A stretch of DNA of 19,632 nt from Chthoniobacteraceae bacterium (GTDB lineage: Bacteria > Verrucomicrobiota > Verrucomicrobiia > Chthoniobacterales > Chthoniobacteraceae). Of this stretch, positions 244 through 19,632 are shown piece by piece. Every line of letters starts with the position of its first letter. Positions within the stretch are counted from its first letter, which is position 1. Below the pieces are notes generated by a model. It had not been told where the DNA came from, searched no databases, and saw only the letters and a program-made list of their open reading frames with translations. The translations under genes were made by a program, and so were the position numbers. The stretch is taken from assembly GCA_031409335.1 (NCBI GenBank), contig JANNWY010000150.1, forward strand, positions 1 to 19,632, in the 5' to 3' direction.

Positions 244-627
244 TCAACAAATAGATGGGCGACGGCTTTCTGGCGCGACGGAGCCGCTGCGCCTGCGGAA
301 GTCTCCGCTGCGCTCATCGGGTTTCGCGATTTGCAAAGCTGCGCGCATCTTGCGTTTCGCATTGTGATTCATCGCGGCGTCGTGGCCGTCGGCGGAGCAC
401 CCACGCTCGGTGAGGAACGTCTGATGAGCGGAGACCTCGCGTTCGCCTTCCGCATCGAAAAGCTCGCCGGCTCGCTCGGGCTGCCGTTTCTCATCACTCC
501 AGCCGCCGCCGCCGGCCTCGCGCCCCATCTTGTCATGGTGCCCGTTCCAGGGCGTCACGACATCAAGGGCTTTCCGCCGGTCGAAGGGCTGGCGACAATT
601 CCGCTAGTTGACGATCCCGCAAGTTGA
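244..627 (+). pseudogene. Class III adenylate/guanylate cyclase catalytic domain, 5'-truncated with a nonsense codon and a frameshift
   Basis: NK*MGDGFL (246-272) matches the cyclase K(Y/F)xGDG motif with TAG at 252-254. After a frameshift near 268: FWRDG...AFRIVIHRGVVAVGG...EERLMSGDLAFAFRIEKLA...HDIKGF, corresponding to the RIGIHxG, GxxVNxAxR(L/M)E and LKG motifs. Confidence 0.75.
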
Positions 628-715
628 GAAGATTCGGTCGCAAGGTGTGATTCCAGATGGCCTAACGCTTGCGAGCTTGCGCAGCACCATTCCCGACGCG
701 CTAAACTCTCGGCTT

Positions 716-3700
716 ATGAGCGCTGACTTTGATCCCACTCTGATCGATCGCACCGTCGCGCTTGCGCGCGTCCTGCAACTGCGTGCGTCGGAGCTGCAGA
801 CGCCGCCCGAGCGCAGGCAGCAGGCGGAGCTGGATCGGATGCTGCAGACGCCCGGCGATCTCGCGACGCTGGTACAAATGACGGATCAATCGTTCCGCTC
901 GAAGACGCCGGCGCGCACCGTCAATCAATTCACGCACATCCTCGATGTGCAGGGCATCCCGCGCTTTTTCAGTCCGCTCGATCGCGCGCTGCTTTTCGGA
1001 TTCCAATCCTTCGGCGGATGGATGCCGGGGGTCGCGGTGCCCCTGGTGAAGGAGCGGATGCAGCAGGAAACGGCGAACGTCGTACTGCCAGCGGAGGCGG
1101 AAATGCTGACGCCACATTTGCGCTCACGGACGGAGGCCGGGCTGCGGATGAATGTGAATTTCCTCGGTGAGGCGCTGCTCAGTGAGGCGGAGGCGGAGCG
1201 GCGGCTCGCACGTTACCTCGAGGCGCTGGCGCTGCCGGAGATCGAGGTGATCTCGGTGAAAATCTCGACGCTGTATTCGCAAATCTCGCCACTCGCTCGC
1301 GAGGTGACGATCGACGTTTTGTATGCGCGGCTGGAGGTGCTTTATCGCGCGGCGGCGAGCGCGCGTTTCGTGCGTCCCGATGGCACGAGCGTCCCAAAAT
1401 TCGTCTATCTCGACATGGAGGAATATCGCGACCTCCGGCTGACGGCGGAGACTTTCATGCGCACGCTCGACCGACCCGGACTGGACCGTGTGGAGGCCGG
1501 GATCGCTCTCCAGGCTTACATCCCGGACTCGGCCGCGATGCAGCGCACGATCAATGAATGGGCGCGGAAGCGGGTGGCGCGCGGCGGTGCGGCGGTGGTG
1601 ATCCGGCTCGTGAAAGGGGCGAATATGGAGATGGAACGAGTCGAGGCGAGCCTGCGCGGGTAGCCGCAGGCGCCGTTCAAAACGAAGCGTGAGACCGACG
1701 CGAACTACAAGCGGATGCTCGTGGAGGCGATGAAGCCGGAGAACCTCGCGGCAGTGCGGATTGGCGTGGCTTCGCACAATCTTTTCGATGTGGCATTCGC
1801 GCTCATGCTGACGGCGGAAAACAAGGCGGATGATCGCGTGCAGTTTGAAATGCTGGAAGGCATGGCGAATCACCAGCGGCGCGCGATCGAGGCGGAAACG
1901 CGCAGCGTTCTCCTTTACGCACCCGCTTGTCTGAAGGCGGATTTCGTTCACGCGATCGGGTATCTGATCCGTCGTCTCGATGAGAACACGGGCGAGGAAA
2001 ATTTCCTGCGCCACACGTTCAAGCTCGTCGTGGACAGCGACGACTGGCTCGCGCTGGAGCGCGGCTTTCGCGCGGCGTTCACCGCGGTGCCGGACGCTCC
2101 ACGGCGAACGCAGGATCGTCTCACCACGCCCGCGCCCGCGCCACTTCCCGAGATGCAGTGGAATGAATTTCGCAACGAGCCCGACACGGATTTCACGCTG
2201 CCACAAAACGTGCATGGGCGGAACAACTCGCGGCGCGATGGCTGGCGCGCGTGGCGGACATTCCGCTGGTCGTCGATGGCGTCGAGATTCGCGACGGGCA
2301 AACACGGCGCGAGTGCCGAGATCCGTCGCGCCCCGGCGTTTCGCTTGGTTCGCGTTCCGAAGGCAACGACGAGGCCGTCGAGCGGGCCGTCGCGTGCGCG
2401 GTGCGCGACGAAGATGGCTGGCGTGCGATGTCCCTCGACGCCCGATCCGCGATTCTCGGGAAGGTCGCGGACGAACTCCGCCGCGCGCGCGCGGACCTGA
2501 TCGGCGCTGCCCTCGCGAACGCAGGAAAGACGATCGGCGAGGCCGACCCGGAAGTTTCCGAGGCGGTCGCTTTCGTGGAATTCTACCGCGCCTCGGCCCG
2601 CCGCTGGACCGGATTGAAACAGGTGGCGACACGTGGCAAGGGCGTGATCGTGGTCGTGTCGCCGTGGAATTTTCCGATCGCAATTCCGTGCGGTGGAATC
2701 GCCGCCGCGCTCGCCGCGGGAAACACGGTGATCCTGAAACCCGCGTCCGACGCGGTGCTCGTCGCGTGGGAATTGTGCCAGTGTTTCTGGCGCGCGGGAG
2801 TTTCAAAAAAGACCCTGCAATTCCTCCCCTGCCCCGGTGCCAGCGTCGGGGAAAAGCTGGTGCTCCACGCGGATGTCGATGGCGTGATTCTCACCGGCGG
2901 CACGGATACCGCGCTGCGGATGCTTCACGAGAAACCGGCGCTGCAACTCGTCGCGGAAACCGGCGGAAAAAACGCGACGATCGTCACTGCGCTCTCCGAT
3001 CACGAGCAGGCGATTCGCAATGTGCTGCACTCGGCATTCAGCCACAGCGGGCAGAAATGTTCCGCGACTTCGCTGCTGCTGCTGGAGGCCGAGATTTACG
3101 ATGATCCCGCGTTTCGGAATGCACTCCGCGAAGCAGTGGAAAGTCTGCGCGTCGGGTCGGTGTGGGATTTTTCCACGCGCATCGGCCCGCTCATCCGCCC
3201 GCCATCCGGCGAACTCGAATGGGCGCTGACCTCGCTCGATGAAGGCGAGGAATGGCTGGTAAAACCACGCCGCGATCCGGTGAATCCGCACCTCTGGTCG
3301 CCCGGCGTGAAGTATGGCGTGCAGGCCGGAAGCCGCTCGCATTGCACGGAATTTTTCGGCCCCGTGCTCAGCGTCATGCGCTTCACTTCACTCGATGAAG
3401 CGATCAATCTCGTGAATGAAACCGGCTACGGGCTGACGTCCGGTATCGAGAGTCTCGACGAGCGCGAGATCGAGCACTGGCGCGCGCATGTCCGCGCGGG
3501 CAATCTTTACATCAATCGCCCGACCACCGGCGCGATCGTGCTGCGCCAGCCCTTCGGCGGATTCGGCAAATCGCACATCGGCCCCGGCATGAAAGCGGGC
3601 GGGCCAAACTACCTCGCGCAATTCATGACATTCGAGGAACACCTGCACGAAACTCCCGGTCGGAATATCGAACATCCGCGGCTCGAACATTTGCGAATGC

Positions 3701-4293
3701 ACATCCGCGGACGCGCGCCGGATGAGCCGGAAATGGGACGACTCATCACCGCGATCGAGAGCTACGACCGCGCGCGGACGGATGAGTTTAGCCAGGAGCA
3801 CGATCACTTTCGCCTGATCGGCGAGGACAACGTGCGGCGCTATCCCGCGTTCCGGGAAGTGCGCATCCGCATTCATCCCGACGACACGTTTTTTGAAATC
3901 TTCGCGCGCACCTGCGCGGCAAAGGCGGCGGGATGTCGCATCACCGTGAGCAGCCCGCCCGATCTCGACCTTGCGCCCGTCCTCCTCCTGGAAAGCCTCA
4001 CGGAGCCGTGGGCGGGCGCGATCGAATTCATCGAGGAAACCGACGAACATCTCGCCAATGCGATCCAGCATCACCGCACGCGCCGCATTCGCTACGCCGC
4101 CCCGGCGCGCGTGCCCGCGATCGTGCGAAGCGCCGCTGCAGAGAGCGGCTTCTTCATCGCGGACGCGCCGGTCCTTGTGGAAGGCCGCGTGGAAATGCTT
4201 TGGTATCTGCGCGAACAGAGCGTCAGCCATTCCTACCACCGCTACGGAAACCTCGGAGTCCGCACCCGCGAGCAGCGGGCGGAGCCGCTGTGA
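716..4293 (+). pseudogene. putA: Bifunctional proline dehydrogenase / P5C dehydrogenase PutA, interrupted by an in-frame TAG (1661-1663) and a 1-nt frameshift (~2210)
   Basis: PRODH motifs NVNFLGE, SVKIS, LDMEEY, LQAY, RLVKGA, ASHNLFD, FEMLEGM, YLIRRLDEN. ALDH motifs SPWNFP, ETGGKNA, FSHSGQKCSA, EFFGP, QPFGG. The three ORFs join: RG*PQAPF in one frame, then PQN to AWAEQLAARW across the shift. Likely start is ATG 716. Confidence 0.92.
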
Positions 4294-11905: not shown

Positions 11906-12820
11906 ATGCCCGCGGATACGCCAGCCAGGCAGCAACTGCGTGGCTTCGCCTTTGGCCTGCTTGGCGTGCTTTGCTTCAGCCTCACGCTGCCCGCCACCCG
12001 CGTCGCGGTCGCCTCGCTCGATCCCTTTTTCGTCGGGCTCGGTCGCGAACTCGTCGCCGCATGCTGCGCCGCGCCACTGCTCTACTTCACGCGCCAGCCG
12101 CGACCGTCCGCTTCCCAGCTCCGCCGGCTCAGTGTCGTCGTGCTCGGATTGGTGATCGGATTTCCCACGCTGAGCGCGTGGGCCATGGCGCGCGTGGATT
12201 CATCGCACGGCGCGGTCGTGCTCGGGCTGCTGCCGCTCGCCACTGCCATCGCCGGTTTTTTCCGCGCGCATGAGCGGCCATCGCGCGGATTTTGGTGCGT
12301 GAGCGCGGTGGGAAGTTTCACCGTCGTCACCTATGCGCTCGCCGCGGGCGATGGCCGCTTTCGGCCAGCCGATTGGGCGCTGCTCGCCGCGGTGGTCTGC
12401 ACCGCTTTCGGCTATGCGGAAGGCGGCAGGCTCGGCCGCGAGATGGGCGGATGGCAGGTGATTTGTTGGGCCGTCGTCCTCGGCCTGCCGCTGCTGGTGC
12501 CAGCCGTCGCATACCTCGTCTGGCAGCACGGTCTCGCGGCCACGCCATCTGCGTGGGCAGGCTTTGCGTATGTGAGTTTGGTCAGCGCGTTTCTCGCGTT
12601 TTTCGCATGGTACCACGGCCTCGCGATTGGCGGCGTGGCGCGCGTCGGCCAGGTCCAATTGCTCCAGCCATTCTTCACGCTCGCCTTCGCCGCCACATTC
12701 CTCGGCGAACACTTCGGCATCGGCGCGATCATCGCCGCCACCATCGTCGCGCTCTCCATCCTGATCGGGCGAAAAATGAAGATCACCCGCGCGCCCTCAC
12801 CAGATGGCCCGCGGGATTGA
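11906..12820 (+). CDS. EamA/DMT-family transporter
   Basis: About 10 hydrophobic helices in two repeats; FSLTLPATR, GYAEGGRL.R..GGWQVI.W and WY.GLA.GG.AR..Q.QL.QP motifs. Start is TTG 11900 or ATG 11906. Confidence 0.9.
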   Translation: MPADTPARQQLRGFAFGLLGVLCFSLTLPATRVAVASLDPFFVGLGRELVAACCAAPLLYFTRQPRPSASQLRRLSVVVLGLVIGFPTLSAWAMARVDSSHGAVVLGLLPLATAIAGFFRAHERPSRGFWCVSAVGSFTVVTYALAAGDGRFRPADWALLAAVVCTAFGYAEGGRLGREMGGWQVICWAVVLGLPLLVPAVAYLVWQHGLAATPSAWAGFAYVSLVSAFLAFFAWYHGLAIGGVARVGQVQLLQPFFTLAFAATFLGEHFGIGAIIAATIVALSILIGRKMKITRAPSPDGPRD

Positions 12821-12821
12821 C

Positions 12822-13178
12822 TCATTTGCAGCCACTCAGAATTTTCCGAAACCCGGCGGCACCTGGCGAGGGAGTGTGACCGGCACGGCTGAGCACGGCG
12901 ACCTGGCGCTCGACGGGATCGCCACGCAGGCGCAGGGCGATGCAATTGGCGGCGGCCTCGCACGTGGCGAATCGCGGGAGGATGGCGATGCCGAGGCCGG
13001 CGGCGGTGAGCACCGTTTCGCGGCGGCCGCGGCTGAACAACGACGCGCCGAGTTCGCTCTCCAGCTTGCGCATTTGCTCACTGAGCGCGGCCTGCGCGAG
13101 GTGCAGATGCGCGGCGGCGCGGGTGAAGTTTCGCTGGCGCGCGGCTTCGAGGAAGTATTCGAGCTGGTAAAGTTCCAT
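12822..13178 (-). pseudogene. LysR-family regulator with an in-frame internal deletion of most of the effector-binding domain (118 aa)
   Basis: Intact HTH (MELYQLEYF..AA...NFTRAA..LHLAQAALSEQMRKLESELG..LF.R......LTAAG) fused directly to the C-terminal LGIAILP...R.V......SPGA..F segment. Confidence 0.85.
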
Positions 13179-13251
13179 CGGAATTTCCAGCGAGTATCGA
13201 CGGAAAGCACTGTTTTACCAGTGCCACGAGCCATGCTTTGATCGGTGGCGC

Positions 13252-14736
13252 ATGAGCACGCCTGTTTCCATTCCCGTTGTCCGCCTTGGAGCCTTGAAAT
13301 CGCTGGAGGAGTTTCACGCCGCTTGTGAATCGCTCGGCATTGCGCTGCCTACGGAGGCGCTCGGCGCCGGGCCTTCCCCGCTCGCGGAGCCTGCCGCGGT
13401 GGTGATCAATGGCAGGCGTCCGGGCAATCGCATCGTGATTCATCCGATGGAAGGCTGGGATGGCACCACCACGGGCGGTGTGAGCGATGAGATGCGGCGG
13501 CGCTGGCGGCGTTTCGGCGAGAGCGGGGCAAAGATGATCTGTGGCGCGGAGGCAATGGCGGTGCGCCCCGATGGCCGCGCAAATCCGAATCAGCTCATCA
13601 TCACGGAGGAAAACAAGGCGGGTATCGCGGAGTTGGCGGGCATTTTGAAAAGCGCCCACGCCGAACGCTACGGCACGGCGGACGATCTCGTGATCGGCTT
13701 TCAACTCACCCACTCGGGCCGCTTTTGCCGTCCGCATGACAAGGCGCGCTGGGAATCGCGCGTGGCTTTCCGCCACCCGATTCTCGATCGCAAATTCCAC
13801 GTCACGAGCGATGATCAGGTGTTCACCGATGGGGAAGTGGAGGCATTGATCGCGGACTTTGTGCGCGCGGCGCGGGTCGCGTGGGAAGTGGGCGCGGACT
13901 TTGTCGATTTGAAGCACTGCCATGGTTATCTGCTGCACGAGTTCCTCGGCGCACACACCCGGCCGGGCAGGTATGGCGGCAGCTTCGAGAATCGCACCCG
14001 CATCCTGCGCGAGATCGTCGCGGGCATTCGCGCGGACGGAAATCCCATCGAGTGCGGTGTGCGGCTGAGCCTTTTCGACAAGGTGCCGCATCGCCCGGAC
14101 GCCGCGCGCGCGCAGCCAGGCAAACTCGGGCCGGGTGTCGCGGAGGATTTCTCGGCGTGCCTGCCGTATCGCTACGGCTTTGGCGTGAATCAGGACAATC
14201 CGACGGAGATCGATCTCACGGAGACCTTCGCGTTTGTGGAGCTATGCGGCGAACTCGGGATCAAGGTGCTGAACACCAGCGCTGGCTCGCCGTACTACAC
14301 GCCGCACTTACAACGGCCCGCGTCGTTCCCGCCGAGTGATGGCTACCAGGCAGCGTACGACCCGCTCATCGATGTCGCGCGGCTCATTCAAACGGTGCGT
14401 CTGGTGAAAGCGCGCGCGCCGCGGGGGCTCTATGTCATCGGTTCGGGCTACACCTATTTGCAGGAGTTCCTCGCCCCCGTCGCCACAGCCGTGGTGCGGC
14501 AGGGTTGGGCGGACGCGATCGGTCTCGGACGCGCCGTGCTCTCGTATCCGGCGATGCTGACCGATGCCATCGCGGGCAAGGCACCGGAGAAGAAGCTCAT
14601 CTGCCGCACCTTCAGCGAATGCACCACCGCGCCGCGCAACGGACTCATCAGCGGCTGCTACCCGCTCGACAAGTTTTACACGCAGCGCCCGGAATTCGCG
14701 CAGCTCAAGGAGATCAAGAAAAAGGCCGGCGCGTGA
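13252..14736 (+). CDS. NADH:flavin oxidoreductase / Old Yellow Enzyme family protein
   Basis: NRIVIHPME, GFQLTHSGR, AA..A...G.D.V, HGYLLHEFL, YGGSFENRTR..REI, and GLGR FMN-binding motifs; divergent from the LysR gene. Confidence 0.88.
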   Translation: MSTPVSIPVVRLGALKSLEEFHAACESLGIALPTEALGAGPSPLAEPAAVVINGRRPGNRIVIHPMEGWDGTTTGGVSDEMRRRWRRFGESGAKMICGAEAMAVRPDGRANPNQLIITEENKAGIAELAGILKSAHAERYGTADDLVIGFQLTHSGRFCRPHDKARWESRVAFRHPILDRKFHVTSDDQVFTDGEVEALIADFVRAARVAWEVGADFVDLKHCHGYLLHEFLGAHTRPGRYGGSFENRTRILREIVAGIRADGNPIECGVRLSLFDKVPHRPDAARAQPGKLGPGVAEDFSACLPYRYGFGVNQDNPTEIDLTETFAFVELCGELGIKVLNTSAGSPYYTPHLQRPASFPPSDGYQAAYDPLIDVARLIQTVRLVKARAPRGLYVIGSGYTYLQEFLAPVATAVVRQGWADAIGLGRAVLSYPAMLTDAIAGKAPEKKLICRTFSECTTAPRNGLISGCYPLDKFYTQRPEFAQLKEIKKKAGA

Positions 14737-14748
14737 CCGGAGCGGCGC

Positions 14749-17325
14749 TCACTTCGCCCAGGTGATGAGCCGCAACTCGTGGTCCTGCGTCACGTTTGGG
14801 TGGGTGGGAATGACGCGCACGTTCAGCCCGTAGCTGCCGCTGTCGGTGGCGGGGATTTCGCCGATGTAGAGATGGTTTCCACCGTCGATTTTCTTTTCCA
14901 GTTTGAACGCGGACATCGCCGGCCGCTCGATTTCGTTGTTCACCGCCTCGCCGAAATACGCCTGCACGGTGACAAACTCGGGATCGACCGGCCCCAGATG
15001 CACGATGGCCTCGACGCGCACTTTTTCACCGACAAAAACGCCCGGCGGTTTGGTGTGAAGCTGCACCTCCTTGATCGAAATCTGCGGCCAGTTTTTGCGG
15101 ATGGAATCCTTCCACTTGGAAAGTTCGACCGCCTTTTTTCCGCCATTCGGCGCGAGGATGCCATGCGCTTCCGCTGCCGGTTCGTAGAGCCGCTCGGCGT
15201 ATTCCTTCACCATGCGATGGGTGTTGAAAACGGGGACGACCGTGCGGATGGATTCGCGCATGAGCTGGATCCACGCGACGGGCAGCTTGCCATCCGGCTT
15301 CGCGTAATAGAGCGGGACGATCTGCGCTTCGAGCAGGTGAAAAAGGCTCGCGACATCCACGGCCTCCTCGAATTTTTCGTCGATCGGCTCGGTCGTTTCG
15401 TCGATCTCGGAACCGATCGCCCAGCCGGATTTTTTGTTCTGCTTGTAAGCCTCGCACCACCAGCCATCGAGCACCGAGAGATTCAGCCCGCCGGATGGCG
15501 GCAGCTTCATGCCGCTGGTGCCACTGGCTTCGAGCGGACGGCGCGGATTATTCAGCCAAAGATCGACGCCCTGATACAGCCGCCGCCCGACGTAGTGATC
15601 GTAGTCTTCGACAAAGACGATGCGGTTTTCAAACTCCGGCATCCGCGTGAATTGATAGACTTTCTGGATGAATTGTTTGCCCGGTTCGTCTTTCGGATGG
15701 GCCTTGCCGGCAAAAATGAACTGCACGGGGCGCTCGGGATTGGTGAGCAGTTTTTGTAGCCGATCCGGGTCCGCGAAGAGCAGCGTCGCACGTTTGTAGG
15801 TCGCAAAACGGCGCGCAAAACCGATCGTCAGCACCTCGGGATTCAGCATCCGCGAGACGTGCCGGATGCTCTCCGGCGTCTCCCCGAGCCGCGTCCGCTG
15901 GCGGCGCACCCGCTCGCGCACAAACTCGATCAGCCGCGACTTCAGCCGCTGATGCGTCGCCCACATCTCATCATCCGGAATATCCAGCACGCCGCGCCAG
16001 AAATCCTCGTTCATCAAATTCTCCTCCCAGTTCGGCAGATACTTGTCGTAGAGGTCGCCGAATTCCGGGGCCATCCACGTCTTGGTGTGAATGCCGTTCG
16101 TGATCGACGTGATCGGCACTTCGTTCTGAGGCACGCCCGCCCACACATCCTTCCACAGCCCCTGCGAGACGCGCCCGTGCAATTCCGAAACGCCATTCGC
16201 ATGGCGGCTCGTGCGCAGGGCGAGGATCGTCATCGAAAACGGCTCGCTCGTGTTGTGCCGGAACTGGCCGAAACTCGCGAACGTCGTCCAGTCGATCCCC
16301 ACCGTGACCGGATAGCTCCCGAAATATTTCCGCATCAGATCGAGCGGGAATGAATCATTCCCCGCGGGCACTGGCGTGTGCGTGGTGAAAATATTTGCCG
16401 ACGCGACGATCTGGAGCGCGGAGTAAAAGTCGAGTTTGTGATCCGCGACCTGGCGGCGGATCAACTCCAGGCTCAGGAAAGCGGAGTGCCCTTCATTCAT
16501 GTGATACACGCTCGGCACGATGCCCATCGCGTGCAGCGCGTGGACGCCGCCGATGCCCAGCACGACCTCCTGCCGCACGCGCAGCTCCGTGTCGCCGCCG
16601 TAGAGCTGCGCCGTGATGCCGCGATCCTCCTCCGAGTTCTCCGGCACATCCGTGTCCAGCATGTAAAGCGTGATCCGCCCGATCGCGAGCGCCCACACTT
16701 TCGCCGAGACCGAGCGCCCGGGCATCTCGACGCCGATCGTCAGCGGAGCACCCTTGCTATCGAGCGCTTCCTTCAGGGGAAGATGCGAAAAATTCTGATT
16801 CAGGCCGATGGATTCCTGCCAGCCCTCCTTGTTGATCTGCTGCCGGAAGTAGCCCTGCTTGTAGAGCAGCGTCACCGCCACGAAATTGATGTCGAGATCG
16901 CTCGCGCTCTTGCAGTGATCGCCCGAAAGAATCCCGAGGCCGCCCGAGTAATTCGGGACCGATTCGTGAAACCCAAACTCGGCGCTGAAATACGCGACCG
17001 GCCCTTTCGCCAGCGGGCTCTTCGTCCGCAGTTTTCCGTAAGTGTCCTTCCGTCCGAGATAGCTCTCGTACCGCTGATGCACATCCTTCATCTCGCGGAT
17101 GAAATCATCGTCCCCCGCGACCTCGTGCAGCCGGGCCTGCTTGCAAAGCTGGAGCATCCGCAGCGGGTTGTGATTGGTATTGTCCCACAGATGCGGATCG
17201 AGATGGCGGAAGAGCGCCCGCGCCTTCGGCTCCCACGTCCACCACAGGTTGAAGACAATGTCCCGCAGTGGCTCCAGCGGGAGTGGCAATCTCGGCACGA
17301 CGTTGAATGTATGAATTGGCTGCAT
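14749..17325 (-). CDS. glgP: Alpha-glucan (glycogen/maltodextrin) phosphorylase
   Basis: AYFSAEFG, YSGGLGILSGDH.KSASD, HMNEGH, FTTHTPVPAG, ITNGIH, GFARRFATYKR, EASGTSGMK (PLP lysine) and LSVLDGWW motifs; 858 aa. Confidence 0.95.
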   Translation of the reverse strand: MQPIHTFNVVPRLPLPLEPLRDIVFNLWWTWEPKARALFRHLDPHLWDNTNHNPLRMLQLCKQARLHEVAGDDDFIREMKDVHQRYESYLGRKDTYGKLRTKSPLAKGPVAYFSAEFGFHESVPNYSGGLGILSGDHCKSASDLDINFVAVTLLYKQGYFRQQINKEGWQESIGLNQNFSHLPLKEALDSKGAPLTIGVEMPGRSVSAKVWALAIGRITLYMLDTDVPENSEEDRGITAQLYGGDTELRVRQEVVLGIGGVHALHAMGIVPSVYHMNEGHSAFLSLELIRRQVADHKLDFYSALQIVASANIFTTHTPVPAGNDSFPLDLMRKYFGSYPVTVGIDWTTFASFGQFRHNTSEPFSMTILALRTSRHANGVSELHGRVSQGLWKDVWAGVPQNEVPITSITNGIHTKTWMAPEFGDLYDKYLPNWEENLMNEDFWRGVLDIPDDEMWATHQRLKSRLIEFVRERVRRQRTRLGETPESIRHVSRMLNPEVLTIGFARRFATYKRATLLFADPDRLQKLLTNPERPVQFIFAGKAHPKDEPGKQFIQKVYQFTRMPEFENRIVFVEDYDHYVGRRLYQGVDLWLNNPRRPLEASGTSGMKLPPSGGLNLSVLDGWWCEAYKQNKKSGWAIGSEIDETTEPIDEKFEEAVDVASLFHLLEAQIVPLYYAKPDGKLPVAWIQLMRESIRTVVPVFNTHRMVKEYAERLYEPAAEAHGILAPNGGKKAVELSKWKDSIRKNWPQISIKEVQLHTKPPGVFVGEKVRVEAIVHLGPVDPEFVTVQAYFGEAVNNEIERPAMSAFKLEKKIDGGNHLYIGEIPATDSGSYGLNVRVIPTHPNVTQDHELRLITWAK

Positions 17326-17488
17326 GTTTCCCTTTTTGTAATTTTGTTTCCCTGCGCCCGTAGCGGAATCGGTGCCGCGGGCGATTTCGCGCGGAGGCTA
17401 ACGGGCGAAAAGTCCGAGACAAGAAAAACTGCGGGTGAAGATTTTTGCCGAGCGTGACTGAAAGTGGAGCCGCTGGCAGTGGCTCGTC

Positions 17489-17561
17489 ATCGTCCTCGTC
17501 CTCCTACTCGTCCTCGAAAAAAAGCGGCCCTTTCGTGGACGAGTAGGAGGACGAGGACGAT
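17489..17561. repeat. Long palindrome built from TCGTCC-like hexamers
   Basis: Perfect 25-bp inverted repeat 17489-17513 / 17537-17561, then one T-T mismatch, then CGAAA/TTTCG, with an 11-nt loop. Confidence 0.9.
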
Positions 17562-17726
17562 TTCCGCGCCGCCAAAGCACTTACCATCCCATTGCACCTC
17601 GATGCGCCGGCACCGGCGCGCAGCAAGGGGAATGGACGCTCTACAAATTCAACACCGACTTTTACGAGACATCGGCGGTCTCTAGCCGCCACAGTGTTTT
17701 GGTTGCGATTGAGTTCCAGCGACTTT

Positions 17727-18417
17727 TCAAAGACTTCTCGCTTCTGTGTGGCGCGCACGGCCGTTGCCATTGCCGTTAGCCTGGATGCTCGCGCTCTCGG
17801 TCGCCGCAGGCTCTTCCTCCGTGGTCGAAAGATTCCGGTACCCAGCAGCTCTTGCCACCGGCAGCGTGAAAAACACCGGCTCACTCGCCACCCCCTGCGA
17901 TCGCACATTCACCGCCTGCACGATCACCTCCACCGTCTGCCCCGCCATCACCTCACGGATCACCGCCAGCGGCTCCGTCGTTCTCGCCACCAGTTGGAAA
18001 TCGTCCTGCACCCCCGCGATCCGTGTCCGCCACCGATACCGCTTCGCCAGCGCCACCGCTTCGCACTGCACCACCAGCGCCCCCGTCTCATCCAGTTGCA
18101 CCGTCACATTCACCGGCTGCCCCGGCGTCACACTCGTCGCCGGCATCTTCAGCCCGAATGCCAGCCAGCGCGGATCATCCTTCGCCAGTTTCCCCTCCAG
18201 ATTCTTGATCAATTCACGCATCACCCCCACCAGCTTTTCATACGCCGTCTGCCACGCATCCCCGATCGTATTCAGCTCCACCGCTGCCGTCGTCACCGCC
18301 TCCTGCGCTGCCAGCGCCCCGTCCCGCAGCGTCGTCCCCTGCCCCGCCGTCAGCTTCATCGTCGGCACCTCAAAGGTCGGATTCGCCATGAAAAACTTCA
18401 CCAAAGACAACGCCAGC
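17727..18417 (-). pseudogene. Fibronectin type III domain protein, probably 5'-truncated
   Basis: Helical segment, then DDPRWLAFGL, then an FN3-like beta domain (TPGQPVNV...RYRWR...GQTVEVIVQAVN...SEP). Upstream of ~18417 the frame is simply antisense to the IS110 transposase. An in-frame ATG at 18389 could give a 220-aa product. Confidence 0.6.
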
Positions 18418-19097
18418 AACGCTGGCAGCAACTCTGCGCCGCCTTGCTCGACTGCGACCAGGAACTGGCCACCCGCACCGCCGCGCTGACCAGCATCACC
18501 GAGGCCCCGCTGCCCGCCGCCCCGGCCACCCAGCGCCGCGTGCAAAAGAACATGCCCCTTAGCCTGCCCATCTATGCCGAAGCCCACCGCCTGCTCGGCG
18601 TGGACTTGAGTGCCGTCCCGGGGATCAGCGGCGGCGTCCTCTGCGTGCTCCTCAGCGAAGTCGGCACCGGCACCCATCTGCGGGAAAAGTTCCGCAGCGC
18701 CGAAGCCTTTGCCAGTTGGCTGGGCCTTTGTCCGGACAACCGCATCAGCGGCGGACGCATCCTCAAAGCCGGTACCCGCAAAGTCTGCAACCGGATCGCC
18801 AACATCCTGAGGATGGCCGCCCACGCCTTAAGCCGCGCCGATGGCCCGATGGGCGACTATGTGCGCCGCTTCAAAGGCCGACTGGGCAAAGCCGAAGGCA
18901 TTGTCGCCGGGGCGCATAAGTTAGCCCGCATCATTTGGGCCTTGGTCGTCTCCGGCCAGCCCTACGACGAAAAAAAGGCCTTTCAAACCACTCCCGCCAG
19001 CGCCGCCCGCCGCCTCAAACACCTCCAAAACCAAGCTAAAGCCCTCAATATGCAACTCGTTCCAGTCTAACCTCTTCTAACTCCTGTTATTCAGGAG
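18412..19097 (+). mobile_element. IS110-family element, 5'-truncated: C-terminal transposase domain (stop 19068-19070) and right end
   Basis: GVDLSAVPGI, SEVG, FRSAEAFASWLGLCPDNRISGG (serine motif), LRMAA and A.AHKLARII motifs. The N-terminal DEDD/RuvC domain is absent. The end carries a CTCCTG-TTATT-CAGGAG hairpin (19081-19097). Confidence 0.88.
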
Positions 19098-19420
19098 GCC
19101 ACATGGTCACTCCATCTCTTGATGACTCGCCCGAGACCAACAACGCGCGCACCCTCGCGAACGGTGAACTCAACTCCGGGCACAAGTGCTGAGTAATCAA
19201 CCTGCGGATGATAAACAAGACCGAACGTCGCAACGAAAGGGCAAGCGGGCTGAACGCGCTCCGGCGCTGAAAGGAAGATCGTGCCGAGATACTCGCCGTC
19301 ACCAACGACGACGTGTGGCCGATACATCATCGGCTCGGTGAAGACCGGTGGCCGCTGTCGTCCGCCTTGTGCTTCTGTGAGAAACAACATCTCTGCCTCG
19401 ACCTTGGGAAACTCGCGCAT
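19091..19420 (-). CDS. Stand-alone EF-Tu domain III-like beta-barrel protein, 109 aa, in a probable integron cassette
   Basis: EAEMLFLTEAQGGRQRP, YRPH and FTVREGARVVGLGRV align by eye with EF-Tu C-terminal EAEVYIL.K.EGGRHTP, YRPQ and FAIREGGRTVGAGVV. Confidence 0.75.
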   Translation of the reverse strand: MREFPKVEAEMLFLTEAQGGRQRPPVFTEPMMYRPHVVVGDGEYLGTIFLSAPERVQPACPFVATFGLVYHPQVDYSALVPGVEFTVREGARVVGLGRVIKRWSDHVAS

Positions 19421-19435
19421 GATGTGTGTGGCCTA
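19096..19435 (-). mobile_element. Probable integron gene cassette with both attC core half-sites interrupted
   Basis: Minus strand reads TAGGCCACA-cacatc-ATG...TGTGGCCT. These look like remnants of GTTAGGC (core) and GCCTAAC (inverse core), with 8-bp complementarity AGGCCACA(19096-19103)/TGTGGCCT(19427-19434). The single ORF has no room for its own promoter. Confidence 0.6.
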
Positions 19436-19632
19436 GACTTTATGGCTGCCCTCCATGTGAGCGCGGCGTTTTCTGAAAGGGGAAGCGGTGCGCTTGAAGG
19501 AGTGGCGAAGTCGCGGGTTGCGCGGGATAAACCGTGCCGAGCCGCATTCTGTGCGGGATCACCGCCGGAGCGGCGTCACCAATAATAAAGCCAACACACA
19601 ACAAGCACACCATGAACAAAGAACTACTGTTT
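19434..19632 (+). mobile_element. Left end of a second probable IS110-family element; transposase start ATG 19612 (MNKELLF...) cut by the window end
   Basis: Begins with -10-like TAGACT (19434-19439), then ~175 nt of structured non-coding DNA and an A/C-rich leader. MNKELLF fits the short lead-in before the IS110 (I/V)GLD motif, but that motif is not visible here. Confidence 0.55.
19440..19590 (+). ncRNA. Candidate IS110 bridge/seek RNA
   Basis: Stems CTCC(19451-54)/GGAG(19499-502), AGCGC(19460-64)/GCGCT(19490-94), GTGGCG(19502-07)/CGTCAC(19574-79), CCGCA(19542-46)/TGCGG(19552-56) and CGCCG(19563-67)/CGGCG(19571-75). It lies upstream of the putative transposase, as in IS621. Confidence 0.45.

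Follow-up and report, generated by a model that had tools for sequence, protein, structure and literature searches.

How did a short open reading frame (ORF) come to lie between the ends of two different insertion sequences (ISs) at the end of a bacterial contig, and what did those elements recognize there? The window analyzed here is the entire contig C150, 19,632 nucleotides (nt) long, of a Chthoniobacteraceae assembly (G000; 7.9 Mb, 326 contigs, 62% G+C; C-numbers below denote its contigs). Ordinary chromosomal genes fill positions 1 to ~17,400, and the region of interest is the final 1.3 kb. There, the minus-strand ORF P0001 lies between a truncated IS110-type element (IS-A, on the left) and the left end of an IS1111-type element (IS-B, on the right). 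We consider it highly probable that the ORF is an integron cassette, encoding a 108-amino-acid (aa) protein like domain 3 of elongation factor Tu (EF-Tu), and that both of its attC core sites were split at the AG/CT step of GTTAGGC by these two different IS110-family elements, each of an attC-inhabiting lineage and with a predicted RNA guide. The features of this region are listed by position (^ marks a junction or crossover here and below).

18396..19095, plus strand: IS-A remnant, in which an IS110-type recombinase gene is reduced to its C-terminal half (PF02371; BLAST), and a 25-nt right end ...CTGTTATTCAGG
19091..19420, minus strand: cassette ORF P0001, EF-Tu domain-3-like, 109 aa as it stands (profile versus PDB)
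19096..19097, plus strand: AG core dinucleotide of the split site GTT-AG-GC, common to target and element
19096..19103, plus strand: AGGCCACA, what is left of the R'' core in the attC of this cassette, with 4 further nt; complementary to 19427-19434
19098..19434, minus strand: cassette DNA remaining between the two insertions, (GTT)AGGCCACACACATC-ATG...GTG GCC (TAA C), with uninterrupted alleles L107, L108 and L110
19427..19434, plus strand: TGTGGCCT, remnant (reverse complement) of the upstream attC R' core and left flank of IS-B
19435..19612, plus strand: IS-B left end, 178 nt non-coding, with an AGACTT extension followed by the sub-terminal inverted repeat TATGGCTGCC (19441-19450)
19613..19632, plus strand: start of the IS-B recombinase gene (MNKELL...), cut after 20 nt by the end of the contig, which falls inside this repeat

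The initial annotation, made from the letters of the window, proposed the cassette from the two ends of the ORF, and its description holds. On the minus strand, TAGGCCACA begins 15 nt ahead of the ATG, and the 3' end reads CAT GTG GCC TCC TGA. The outer sequences AGGCCACA and TGTGGCCT are exact 8-bp complements, a match expected by chance at two fixed positions about once in 65,000. The last Ser codon and the TGA are supplied by the IS-A end, as had been noticed, and the native TAA is lost. The window junction AG^GCCACATGG, taken together with the junctions of IS-A relatives, indicates a native site GTT-AG-GCCACATGG, whose coding strand reads ...CAT GTG GCC TAA C. The native product is thus predicted to be 108 aa long, ending in GCC TAA. 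A protein search returned 16 homologs of P0001 (41-90% identity; one named as from a Verrucomicrobia metagenome-assembled genome). The two closest (90% and 86% identity) have the C-terminus ...WSDHVA at 108 aa, which is the end expected if GCC TAA C was native, so the cassette reading is borne out.

The initial annotation had also suggested looking for uninterrupted copies of the ORF, and a metagenome scan recovered them with the predicted ends, in the form GTTAGGCCACA...ATG and ...GTGGCCTAAC plus a palindrome. Allele L107 (93% identity) starts uninterrupted as ...AATGTTAGGCCACATCACGTC-ATG (core part GTTAGGCCACATCACGTC-ATG). Allele L108 (61%) starts ...CTGTTAGGCCACTTCGCGCC-ATG and ends ...CCA GTG GCC TGA CC (GTTAGGCCACTT...CAGTGGCCTGA), and allele L110 (85% over the C-terminus) reads ...GTG GCC TAA C, followed by GGATGGAATTGAC...GTCAATTCCATCC, a palindrome with a 13-bp stem. 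The full core sites GTTAGGCCAC... and ...GTGGCCTAAC / GTGGCCTGAC are thereby present in these three alleles. The complementarity of the ends covaries, being CACA/TGTG in the window and CACT/AGTG in L108 (AGGCCACT / AGTGGCCT). The cassette's own attC body, an imperfect palindrome 3' of the ORF, is absent from the window and present behind the L110 homolog; we infer that IS-A, and then a deletion, took its place.

These alleles bear directly on the possibility that the ORF is an ordinary chromosomal gene with GGCC-rich ends, on which the ISs landed by relaxed specificity. The window holds no complete attC, its left side is all housekeeping, and one homolog (L002, genome G022) adjoins a TPR gene with no obvious attC. 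However, the GTTAGGC upstream and the GCCTAAC plus palindrome downstream of the uninterrupted alleles, together with the covarying ends, are at odds with such a gene, and both IS lineages otherwise sit in attC sites (see below). For 13 of the 16 homologs, moreover, the longest contig is a short metagenome contig of <3 kb, and cassette arrays often end up on short metagenome contigs. An ordinary gene is therefore very improbable, and we keep to the cassette assignment.

Pfam gave no match for P0001. The profile of its family matches EF-Tu domain 3 in the PDB (residues ~303-391, E 7e-10), and this resemblance accounts for weak P0001 matches to ~400-aa proteins in 29 of the 60 related genomes searched. 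Proteins of ~100 aa that resemble EF-Tu domain 3 and stand alone (P0001, P0005-P0020) turn up repeatedly on short metagenome contigs. One guess is that such a cassette protein serves as a decoy for a factor that binds EF-Tu.

The genome itself carries an integron. A true integron integrase, IntI, is encoded at C166:399-1334 (TIGR02249, 416 bits against a cut-off of 265, which none of 14 control genomes exceeded), and a cassette ORF points away from intI. C122, C268 and C285, and C9 at its start, carry repeats of 125-180 nt that are separated by short opposite-strand ORFs; these repeats are attC sites of the form GCC(T/G)AAC-GACCCCAAGCTCAGCGAC...GTTCGCTGCAGCGCATGGTT(A/C)GGCG. In this orientation a site runs from the reverse complement of R', beside the start of the following ORF, to the reverse complement of R'', beside the stop of the preceding ORF. 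By nhmmer there are nine attC-type matches in the assembly, seven full or nearly full (C122, C268, C285) and the partial ones on C9 and C213. The contigs with attC arrays also carry IS-B right ends. GTTAGGC occurs 54 times in the genome, similar 7-mers being as frequent (GTTAGCC 68, TTTAGGC 53); there is thus no excess, and the assembled array is small. After the last cassette of C285 (2075-2217, L049), paired short palindromes, GACGCCTAAC^GTTGTTTAGCCACAATAAATTGTGG...CCACAGTTTTTTGTGG, resemble neither the attC body nor the region beside intI on C166.

On the left side of the cassette, IS-A is a dead, 5'-truncated remnant, which the initial annotation had missed. PF02371 (18606-18863, in the frame 18396-19070 with the recombinase stop at 19068-19070) is its sole IS110 domain in the window. 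Homology to a full-length relative begins at 18408 by BLAST and reaches back to ~18396 at the protein level, and the left end, bridge-RNA region and DEDD domain, ~1 kb in all, are gone. The right end CTGTTATTCAGG-AG is common to a 77%-identical copy on C285 and 17 copies in related genomes. C285 overlaps C268 by 125 nt, and joining them in silico gave a full-length relative with ~280 nt of non-coding sequence, a recombinase of ~460 aa (PF01548 and PF02371) and a 28-nt right end. The lineage as a whole has ~280 nt non-coding upstream, 25-28 nt downstream and no long inverted repeats, which fits the IS110 group as against IS1111 by the distinctions drawn in the consulted parts of PMC11187229 and PMC11208160. 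IS-A is antisense to the cassette and occupies GCCT^AAC, the 5' (R'') core of that cassette's attC, which contains the native TAA.

On the right side, the initial annotation had placed a second IS-like left end just beyond 19434, and this stands. The sequence from 19435 (AGACTTTATGGCTGCC...) recurs with the same start base on C38, C274 and C213 (95-98% identity) and on C57 (80%), and 18 copies in relatives also begin there. PF01548 was found in the longer C38 copy of the recombinase, and the assembly lacks the interior and C-terminal domain of IS-B. A full-length relative in a genome of the same family (L044) has 178 nt upstream, a 388-aa recombinase and ~400 nt downstream, ending ...GACAGCCATATC; the right end also stands at the starts of C9 and C268. 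The left repeat TATGGCTGCC pairs with the right repeat TATGGCTGTC (reverse complement) over 10 bp, with extensions of 6 and 2 nt, the right-end partner reading ...GACAGCCATA-TC. The IS1111 group is defined by sub-terminal inverted repeats of 7-17 bp and a long non-coding region downstream; IS-B has both and so shows the IS1111 pattern. The two elements are thus of different types, as had been thought probable. IS-B sits in the 3' (R') core (GTT^AGGC) of the upstream attC, ahead of the ORF start codon, 2 nt from the integrase crossover G^TT and antisense. A composite transposon was considered and ruled out, since the two elements differ and IS-A is truncated.

Both recombinases match the IS621 / ISCro4 chains in the PDB (E ~1e-5 to 1e-6), and the PDB sequence search did not separate IS-A from IS-B. 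In a plasmid collection, no match to the IS-B recombinase exceeded ~54% identity, and none of the 25 records listed showed an integron context; the best plasmid matches are ~50% identical and ISSfr2-like. Many relatives' matches to the IS-B left end span only its first 70, 110 or 140 nt; they may mark attC sites in which a decayed footprint or a short derivative has remained. On C38, a third IS110-family element (12441-13950, L052), with a 320-aa ORF carrying both domains, lies ~600 nt upstream of the IS-B copy. Between the two are a variant attC (...CCACCTAAC-GTTAGGCG) and one cassette, so that the layout IS, cassette, IS-B is that of the window. At C274:21090-21343 (L053), the GTTAGGCG flank of IS-B is the other attC arm, and IS-B is cut off after ~240 nt by a further repeat.

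Do these lineages choose attC cores, or did they meet one by accident? We surveyed junctions in 151 genomes of the same family, where IS-A ends occur as left ends in 8 and as right ends in 22. The full-length IS-A relative splits a single attC, ...GCAGCGCATGGTT-AG^CACCGG...(IS)...TTATTCAGG-AG^GCGCGTTG, with AG at both junctions, and uninterrupted sites of the same array read ...GCGCATGGTTAGGCGTTGCGG. All eight readable left junctions are GGTT-AG^CA, six of them with a longer attC arm (...CAGCG..TGGTT or ...CATCGCCTGGTT). The right junctions, the window's included, read AG^GC(G/C) in 14 of 18, with a different sequence after each. The IS-A crossover is ambiguous over the 2 nt of AG, which are in both target and element. 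The IS-B left end is present in 23 of the 151 genomes. Its left flanks, from 19 relatives and five own-genome copies, end in GCCT in 17 of 24 cases (mostly (A/G)GTCGCCT or ACGCCT) and in CT in 22 of 24, often 10-25 nt after a minus-strand start codon. All 11 right junctions read ...CCAT(A/C)(T/A)C^A(A/G)CGA...CAAGCTCAG, which is attC body. As read from these flanks, the IS-B target is CGCCT^AACGACCCCAAGCTCAG, R' in antisense reading, with the break placed between T and A at an ambiguity of 1 nt. By these flanks IS-B insertion is attC-specific, and it does not lie near the attC 5' end, the position given for the IS1111-attC group in the part of PMC3001079 consulted.

The flank collection that the initial annotation had called for therefore came out with attC-core flanks predominating for both ends. 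These flanks and the uninterrupted attC of the same array uphold its proposal that both lineages hit the core at or beside the AG/CT dinucleotide, IS-A with AG at both junctions and IS-B at T^A of GCCT^AAC. Its suggestion of a Verrucomicrobia-like host agrees with the nearest IS-A relatives, which lie in Chthoniobacteraceae records. One relative (L131) is on a 5.7-kb contig binned as Deltaproteobacteria; it shares the attC flanks of the IS-A relative in G000 and has a recombinase 97% identical to that relative's, and the contig is probably mis-binned or recently transferred.

If both lineages aim at attC, what directs them? RNA guidance of both elements is predicted from covariation between element and flank. 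Six aligned left ends of IS-A relatives contain two similar modules, GACCCCGT-(G/T)GGTTAG-CATGG and GACCCCGT-TCAGGAG-AC. PMC11208160, in the part consulted, defines two guides that both include the core: the left target guide (LTG) has the top-strand sequence of the left target, and the left donor guide (LDG) that of the right end. The IS-A slots fit these definitions, with ...TGGTT-AG as left target and ...TTCAGG-AG as right end. We widened the clade to 19 loci in GTDB species genomes, mostly Chthoniobacteraceae, Verrucomicrobiae, Opitutaceae and Akkermansiaceae, with a few small contigs binned elsewhere. The second module was located in 15 loci and equals the element's own right end in all 15, including three in which both switch from TCAGGAG to TCGGGAG; it was not found in the other four, two of which are cut by contig ends. 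The first module was located in 14 loci. In 11 of the 14, its 7-nt slot is identical to the left flank of the same element together with AG, directly preceding the conserved CAC/CAA element start; two of the remaining three have no match and one is doubtful. Five of the 11 matching slots are of attC type and six correspond to other targets (GGATTAG, AGGGAAG, TGTATAG, TTTTTAG, CCTCAAG, ACGCAAG), while ACCCCGT and CATGG around the slot stay constant. Sister elements with recombinases 79-82% identical have the same ends, a different 7-nt guide slot and different targets. RNAalifold on the six left ends gave 72 pairs, eight with compensatory changes, a plausible fold in which the two-loop structure is not clear.

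For IS-B, the non-coding right end contains the core GGG(G/T)CGTT(G/A)GAGGCG, the reverse complement of CGCCT-CY-AACG(C/A)CCC. This core tracks the element's own right flank in all three elements readable on both (L094 AACGCCCC, L095 AACGACC, L096 CGACTC). Next to this core come GCCTAA and, after it, GCCTAGAC, the left-junction sequence. The candidate guide segments are GGGTCGTT and GCCUAA. In the IS1111 seekRNA, the match to the top strand lies 5' of that to the bottom strand (PMC11187229, in the part consulted), and the order in IS-B is the same.

A different reading is that the attC core is recognized by the recombinase protein or as folded hairpin DNA, the RNA matches being leftovers of copied sites. 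attC sites are structured palindromes to which group IIC-attC introns also home (PMC3001079, as far as consulted), and in a recent preprint an IS110 element is reported to read target structure too (10.64898/2026.03.19.712850, likewise). In agreement with this, no right-target guide was found for IS-A: in 11 loci, AG and the right flank, taken in reverse complement, gave no exact match of at least 5 nt. Leftovers of copied attC sites, however, do not account for a 7-nt slot that follows the left flank in six non-attC relatives between constant ACCCCGT and CATGG, nor for a second module that follows the right end at every locus where it was located. RNA guidance has also been proven experimentally for both family branches (PMC11208160, PMC11187229, in the parts consulted). 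We consider recognition by protein or DNA structure unlikely, and prefer RNA guidance.

Several further observations weigh against a cassette split by two RNA-guided, attC-directed elements. No RNA, circle junction or transposition was observed. The window IS-A lacks the guide region, so statements on its RNA rest on relatives at 77-87% identity, and the target-like GTAGGCCGG was rejected as an IS-A guide because it is conserved also in relatives with other targets. Four of the 18 IS-A right junctions deviate (AG^GA, AG^GAA, AG^CAC, AG^GGT). Seven of the 24 IS-B left flanks lack GCCT (GCGT, GTCT, GGCT, GACT twice, GCTT and GTTAGGCG); the two GACT flanks are probably one orthologous site, the GCTT flank belongs to the decayed C57 copy, and GTTAGGCG^AGAC, in place of ...GCCT, is that of the own-genome C274 copy. 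IS-B has no dinucleotide duplicated at both junctions, the left being TA and the right CA. The related genomes are kin, and some flanks, such as L032 and L034, may be orthologous rather than independent. No contig links C150 to the integrase contig C166 or to the attC-array contigs, and the contigs of four public runs contain no joint skipping either IS (an empty site) and no circle junction.

Are the junctions in the window real? The run-level check used the assembled contigs of those four runs rather than reads, and it is no measure of expression or copy number. In two of them (X1, X2), which may be the samples from which the assembly came, one 391-nt assembly unit covers 19070-19460 with zero differences. 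A chimera at the contig end, joining repeats that are not adjacent in the cell, is suggested by a contig that ends inside a repeat and by a bin of 326 contigs with 141-nt overlaps. Against it, this single unit spans both junctions in two runs at near-chromosomal depth (15 and 7, the neighboring chromosome being at 10 and 12), far below the IS-B end, which is ~25-fold deeper at ~290. The junctions are thus not a scaffolding artefact of C150, and we regard a chimera as extremely unlikely. In runs of other studies, IS-A-type ends occur with other flanks (one GTTGCGGTC...) and IS-B-type ends after other flanks (one ...GTAGCGAC before GCCT).

How the locus reached its present state can be proposed in outline. 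In IS-A relatives, the left end would give rise to a bridge RNA, in which the predicted pairing partner of the first module (ACCCCGT-GGGTTAG-CATGG) is ...GGTT-AG on its bottom strand, and that of the second (ACCCCGT-TCAGGAG) is the element's own right end. In IS-B relatives, a seekRNA or bridge RNA from the right end, spanning GGGTCGTTGGAGGCG...GCCUAA, would carry a segment complementary to CGCCT..AACGACCC and then GCCUAA. After both insertions, a deletion would have removed the left half of IS-A, the remaining attC and whatever lay beyond. Such a deletion likely fused the middle of IS-A to the middle of a neighboring gene (gene X); it is the simplest account of two truncations that meet at one junction. 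The cassette would then be frozen beside ordinary chromosomal genes, beyond integrase reach and read-through from the array promoter. The chromosomal neighbors are as follows.

Within 1-~17,400: proline dehydrogenase / aldehyde dehydrogenase, adenosine deaminase, DUF58, PhoD and sulfatase
Within 1-~17,400: pseudouridine synthase, dienelactone hydrolase, EamA, Old-Yellow-Enzyme-like oxidoreductase and glycogen phosphorylase
17727..18389, minus strand: gene X, a 220-aa, 5'-truncated ORF with no Pfam hit, abutting the truncated IS-A

Gene X is a member of a five-copy family. In its four paralogs (C120, C272, C190, C16), the coding sequence runs on upstream of the point at which the window copy meets IS-A. 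A long, near-perfect hairpin at 17480-17571, between the phosphorylase gene and gene X, belongs to a REP- or terminator-like repeat family with similar copies on at least seven contigs (C304, C19, C195, C229, C73, C226, C77). An Rfam scan of 17000-19632 found no bridge-RNA family, and gave only sub-threshold microRNA-like hits on both strands of this hairpin. At the other end of the contig, positions 1-141 are a repeat 96-100% identical to the ends of C208, C320, C325, C238, C118, C49, C48 and C322; another multi-copy element thus breaks the assembly there. The PutA-like gene (608-4293, plus strand) is split over ORFs, with a proline dehydrogenase part at 608-1663, where the profile match stops at position 164 of 278, and an aldehyde dehydrogenase part at 2251-4293. 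This may reflect frameshifts or assembly errors.

Beyond this locus, we lean with modest confidence toward a wider interpretation. Two unrelated RNA-guided IS110-family branches in Verrucomicrobiota may each have set their guide to GTTAGGC, one per attC arm. The IS110-type branch would be a natural case of bridge-RNA retargeting onto the site of another recombinase, and both would cut, freeze and terminate arrays in the sedentary integrons of environmental bacteria. Bacteria collect and reshuffle genes to a large extent through integrons, and an element that inserts in attC can fix cassettes in place, terminate an array and bring about deletions. In this small locus, two different lineages, both predicted to be RNA-guided, sit at the same dinucleotide on opposite attC arms. 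The IS-A clade is a natural guide-and-target series with one scaffold and seven different 7-nt guides, useful for learning the programming rules of bridge RNAs with a non-CT (AG) core.

Among known systems, the group IIC-attC introns are also attC-specialized and insert antisense near one end (PMC3001079, in the part consulted). These retroelements, with their reverse transcriptase and ribozyme, are related to IS-A and IS-B neither in sequence nor in mechanism. IS-A relatives are closer to IS621, ISCro4 and ISEc21, members of the IS110 group whose bridge RNA (seekRNA) lies upstream of the recombinase (PMC11208160, PMC11208158 and PMC11187229, as far as consulted). They share the long upstream non-coding region, the short right end, the absence of long inverted repeats, two putative RNA modules in the order target then donor with candidate LTG- and LDG-equivalent slots, and a dinucleotide core at both junctions. 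IS-A differs in its AG rather than CT core and in its natural target, the integron attC R'', which is another recombinase's site. Its recombinase is larger (~460 aa) and only distantly similar (the PDB matches above), and right-hand guides were not found. In the full-text literature searched, which did not extend to the supplements of PMC11208160 and PMC11187229, no IS110-group element aimed at attC is described. The attC-hunting habit is known for the IS1111 branch, and an IS110-type case appears not yet to have been described.

The nearest likeness for IS-B is the IS1111-attC group. Its members ISPa21, ISPst6 and ISKpn4, also ISPa25, were reportedly described as attC-targeting by Tetu & Holmes in 2008 and Post & Hall in 2009, and the former are said to have noted decayed footprints at the ends of arrays. 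Such footprints are resembled by the truncated IS-A and by the solo fragments of the IS-B left end in relatives. Since the attC habit is already published for IS1111 elements, the surprise is limited. The main points added here are that a single cassette is occupied by two lineages, that IS-A is truncated, that the cassette encodes an EF-Tu domain-3-like protein, and that guide and flank covary across the IS-A clade. The IS1111-attC group combines a DEDD recombinase with site- and orientation-specific attC insertion antisense to cassettes, and an RNA from the downstream non-coding region that matches both target strands. Its seekRNA was demonstrated in 2024 (Siddiquee et al., PMC11187229, as far as consulted). 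IS-B resembles this group in its sub-terminal inverted repeat, long downstream non-coding region, match order and antisense orientation, and is likened to ISPa21, ISPst6 and ISKpn4 by these features. It differs from them in occupying the 3' (R') core, 2 nt from the integrase crossover, and in its Verrucomicrobiota host with attC sites of 125-180 bp, which extends attC parasitism beyond Pseudomonas and clinical integrons.

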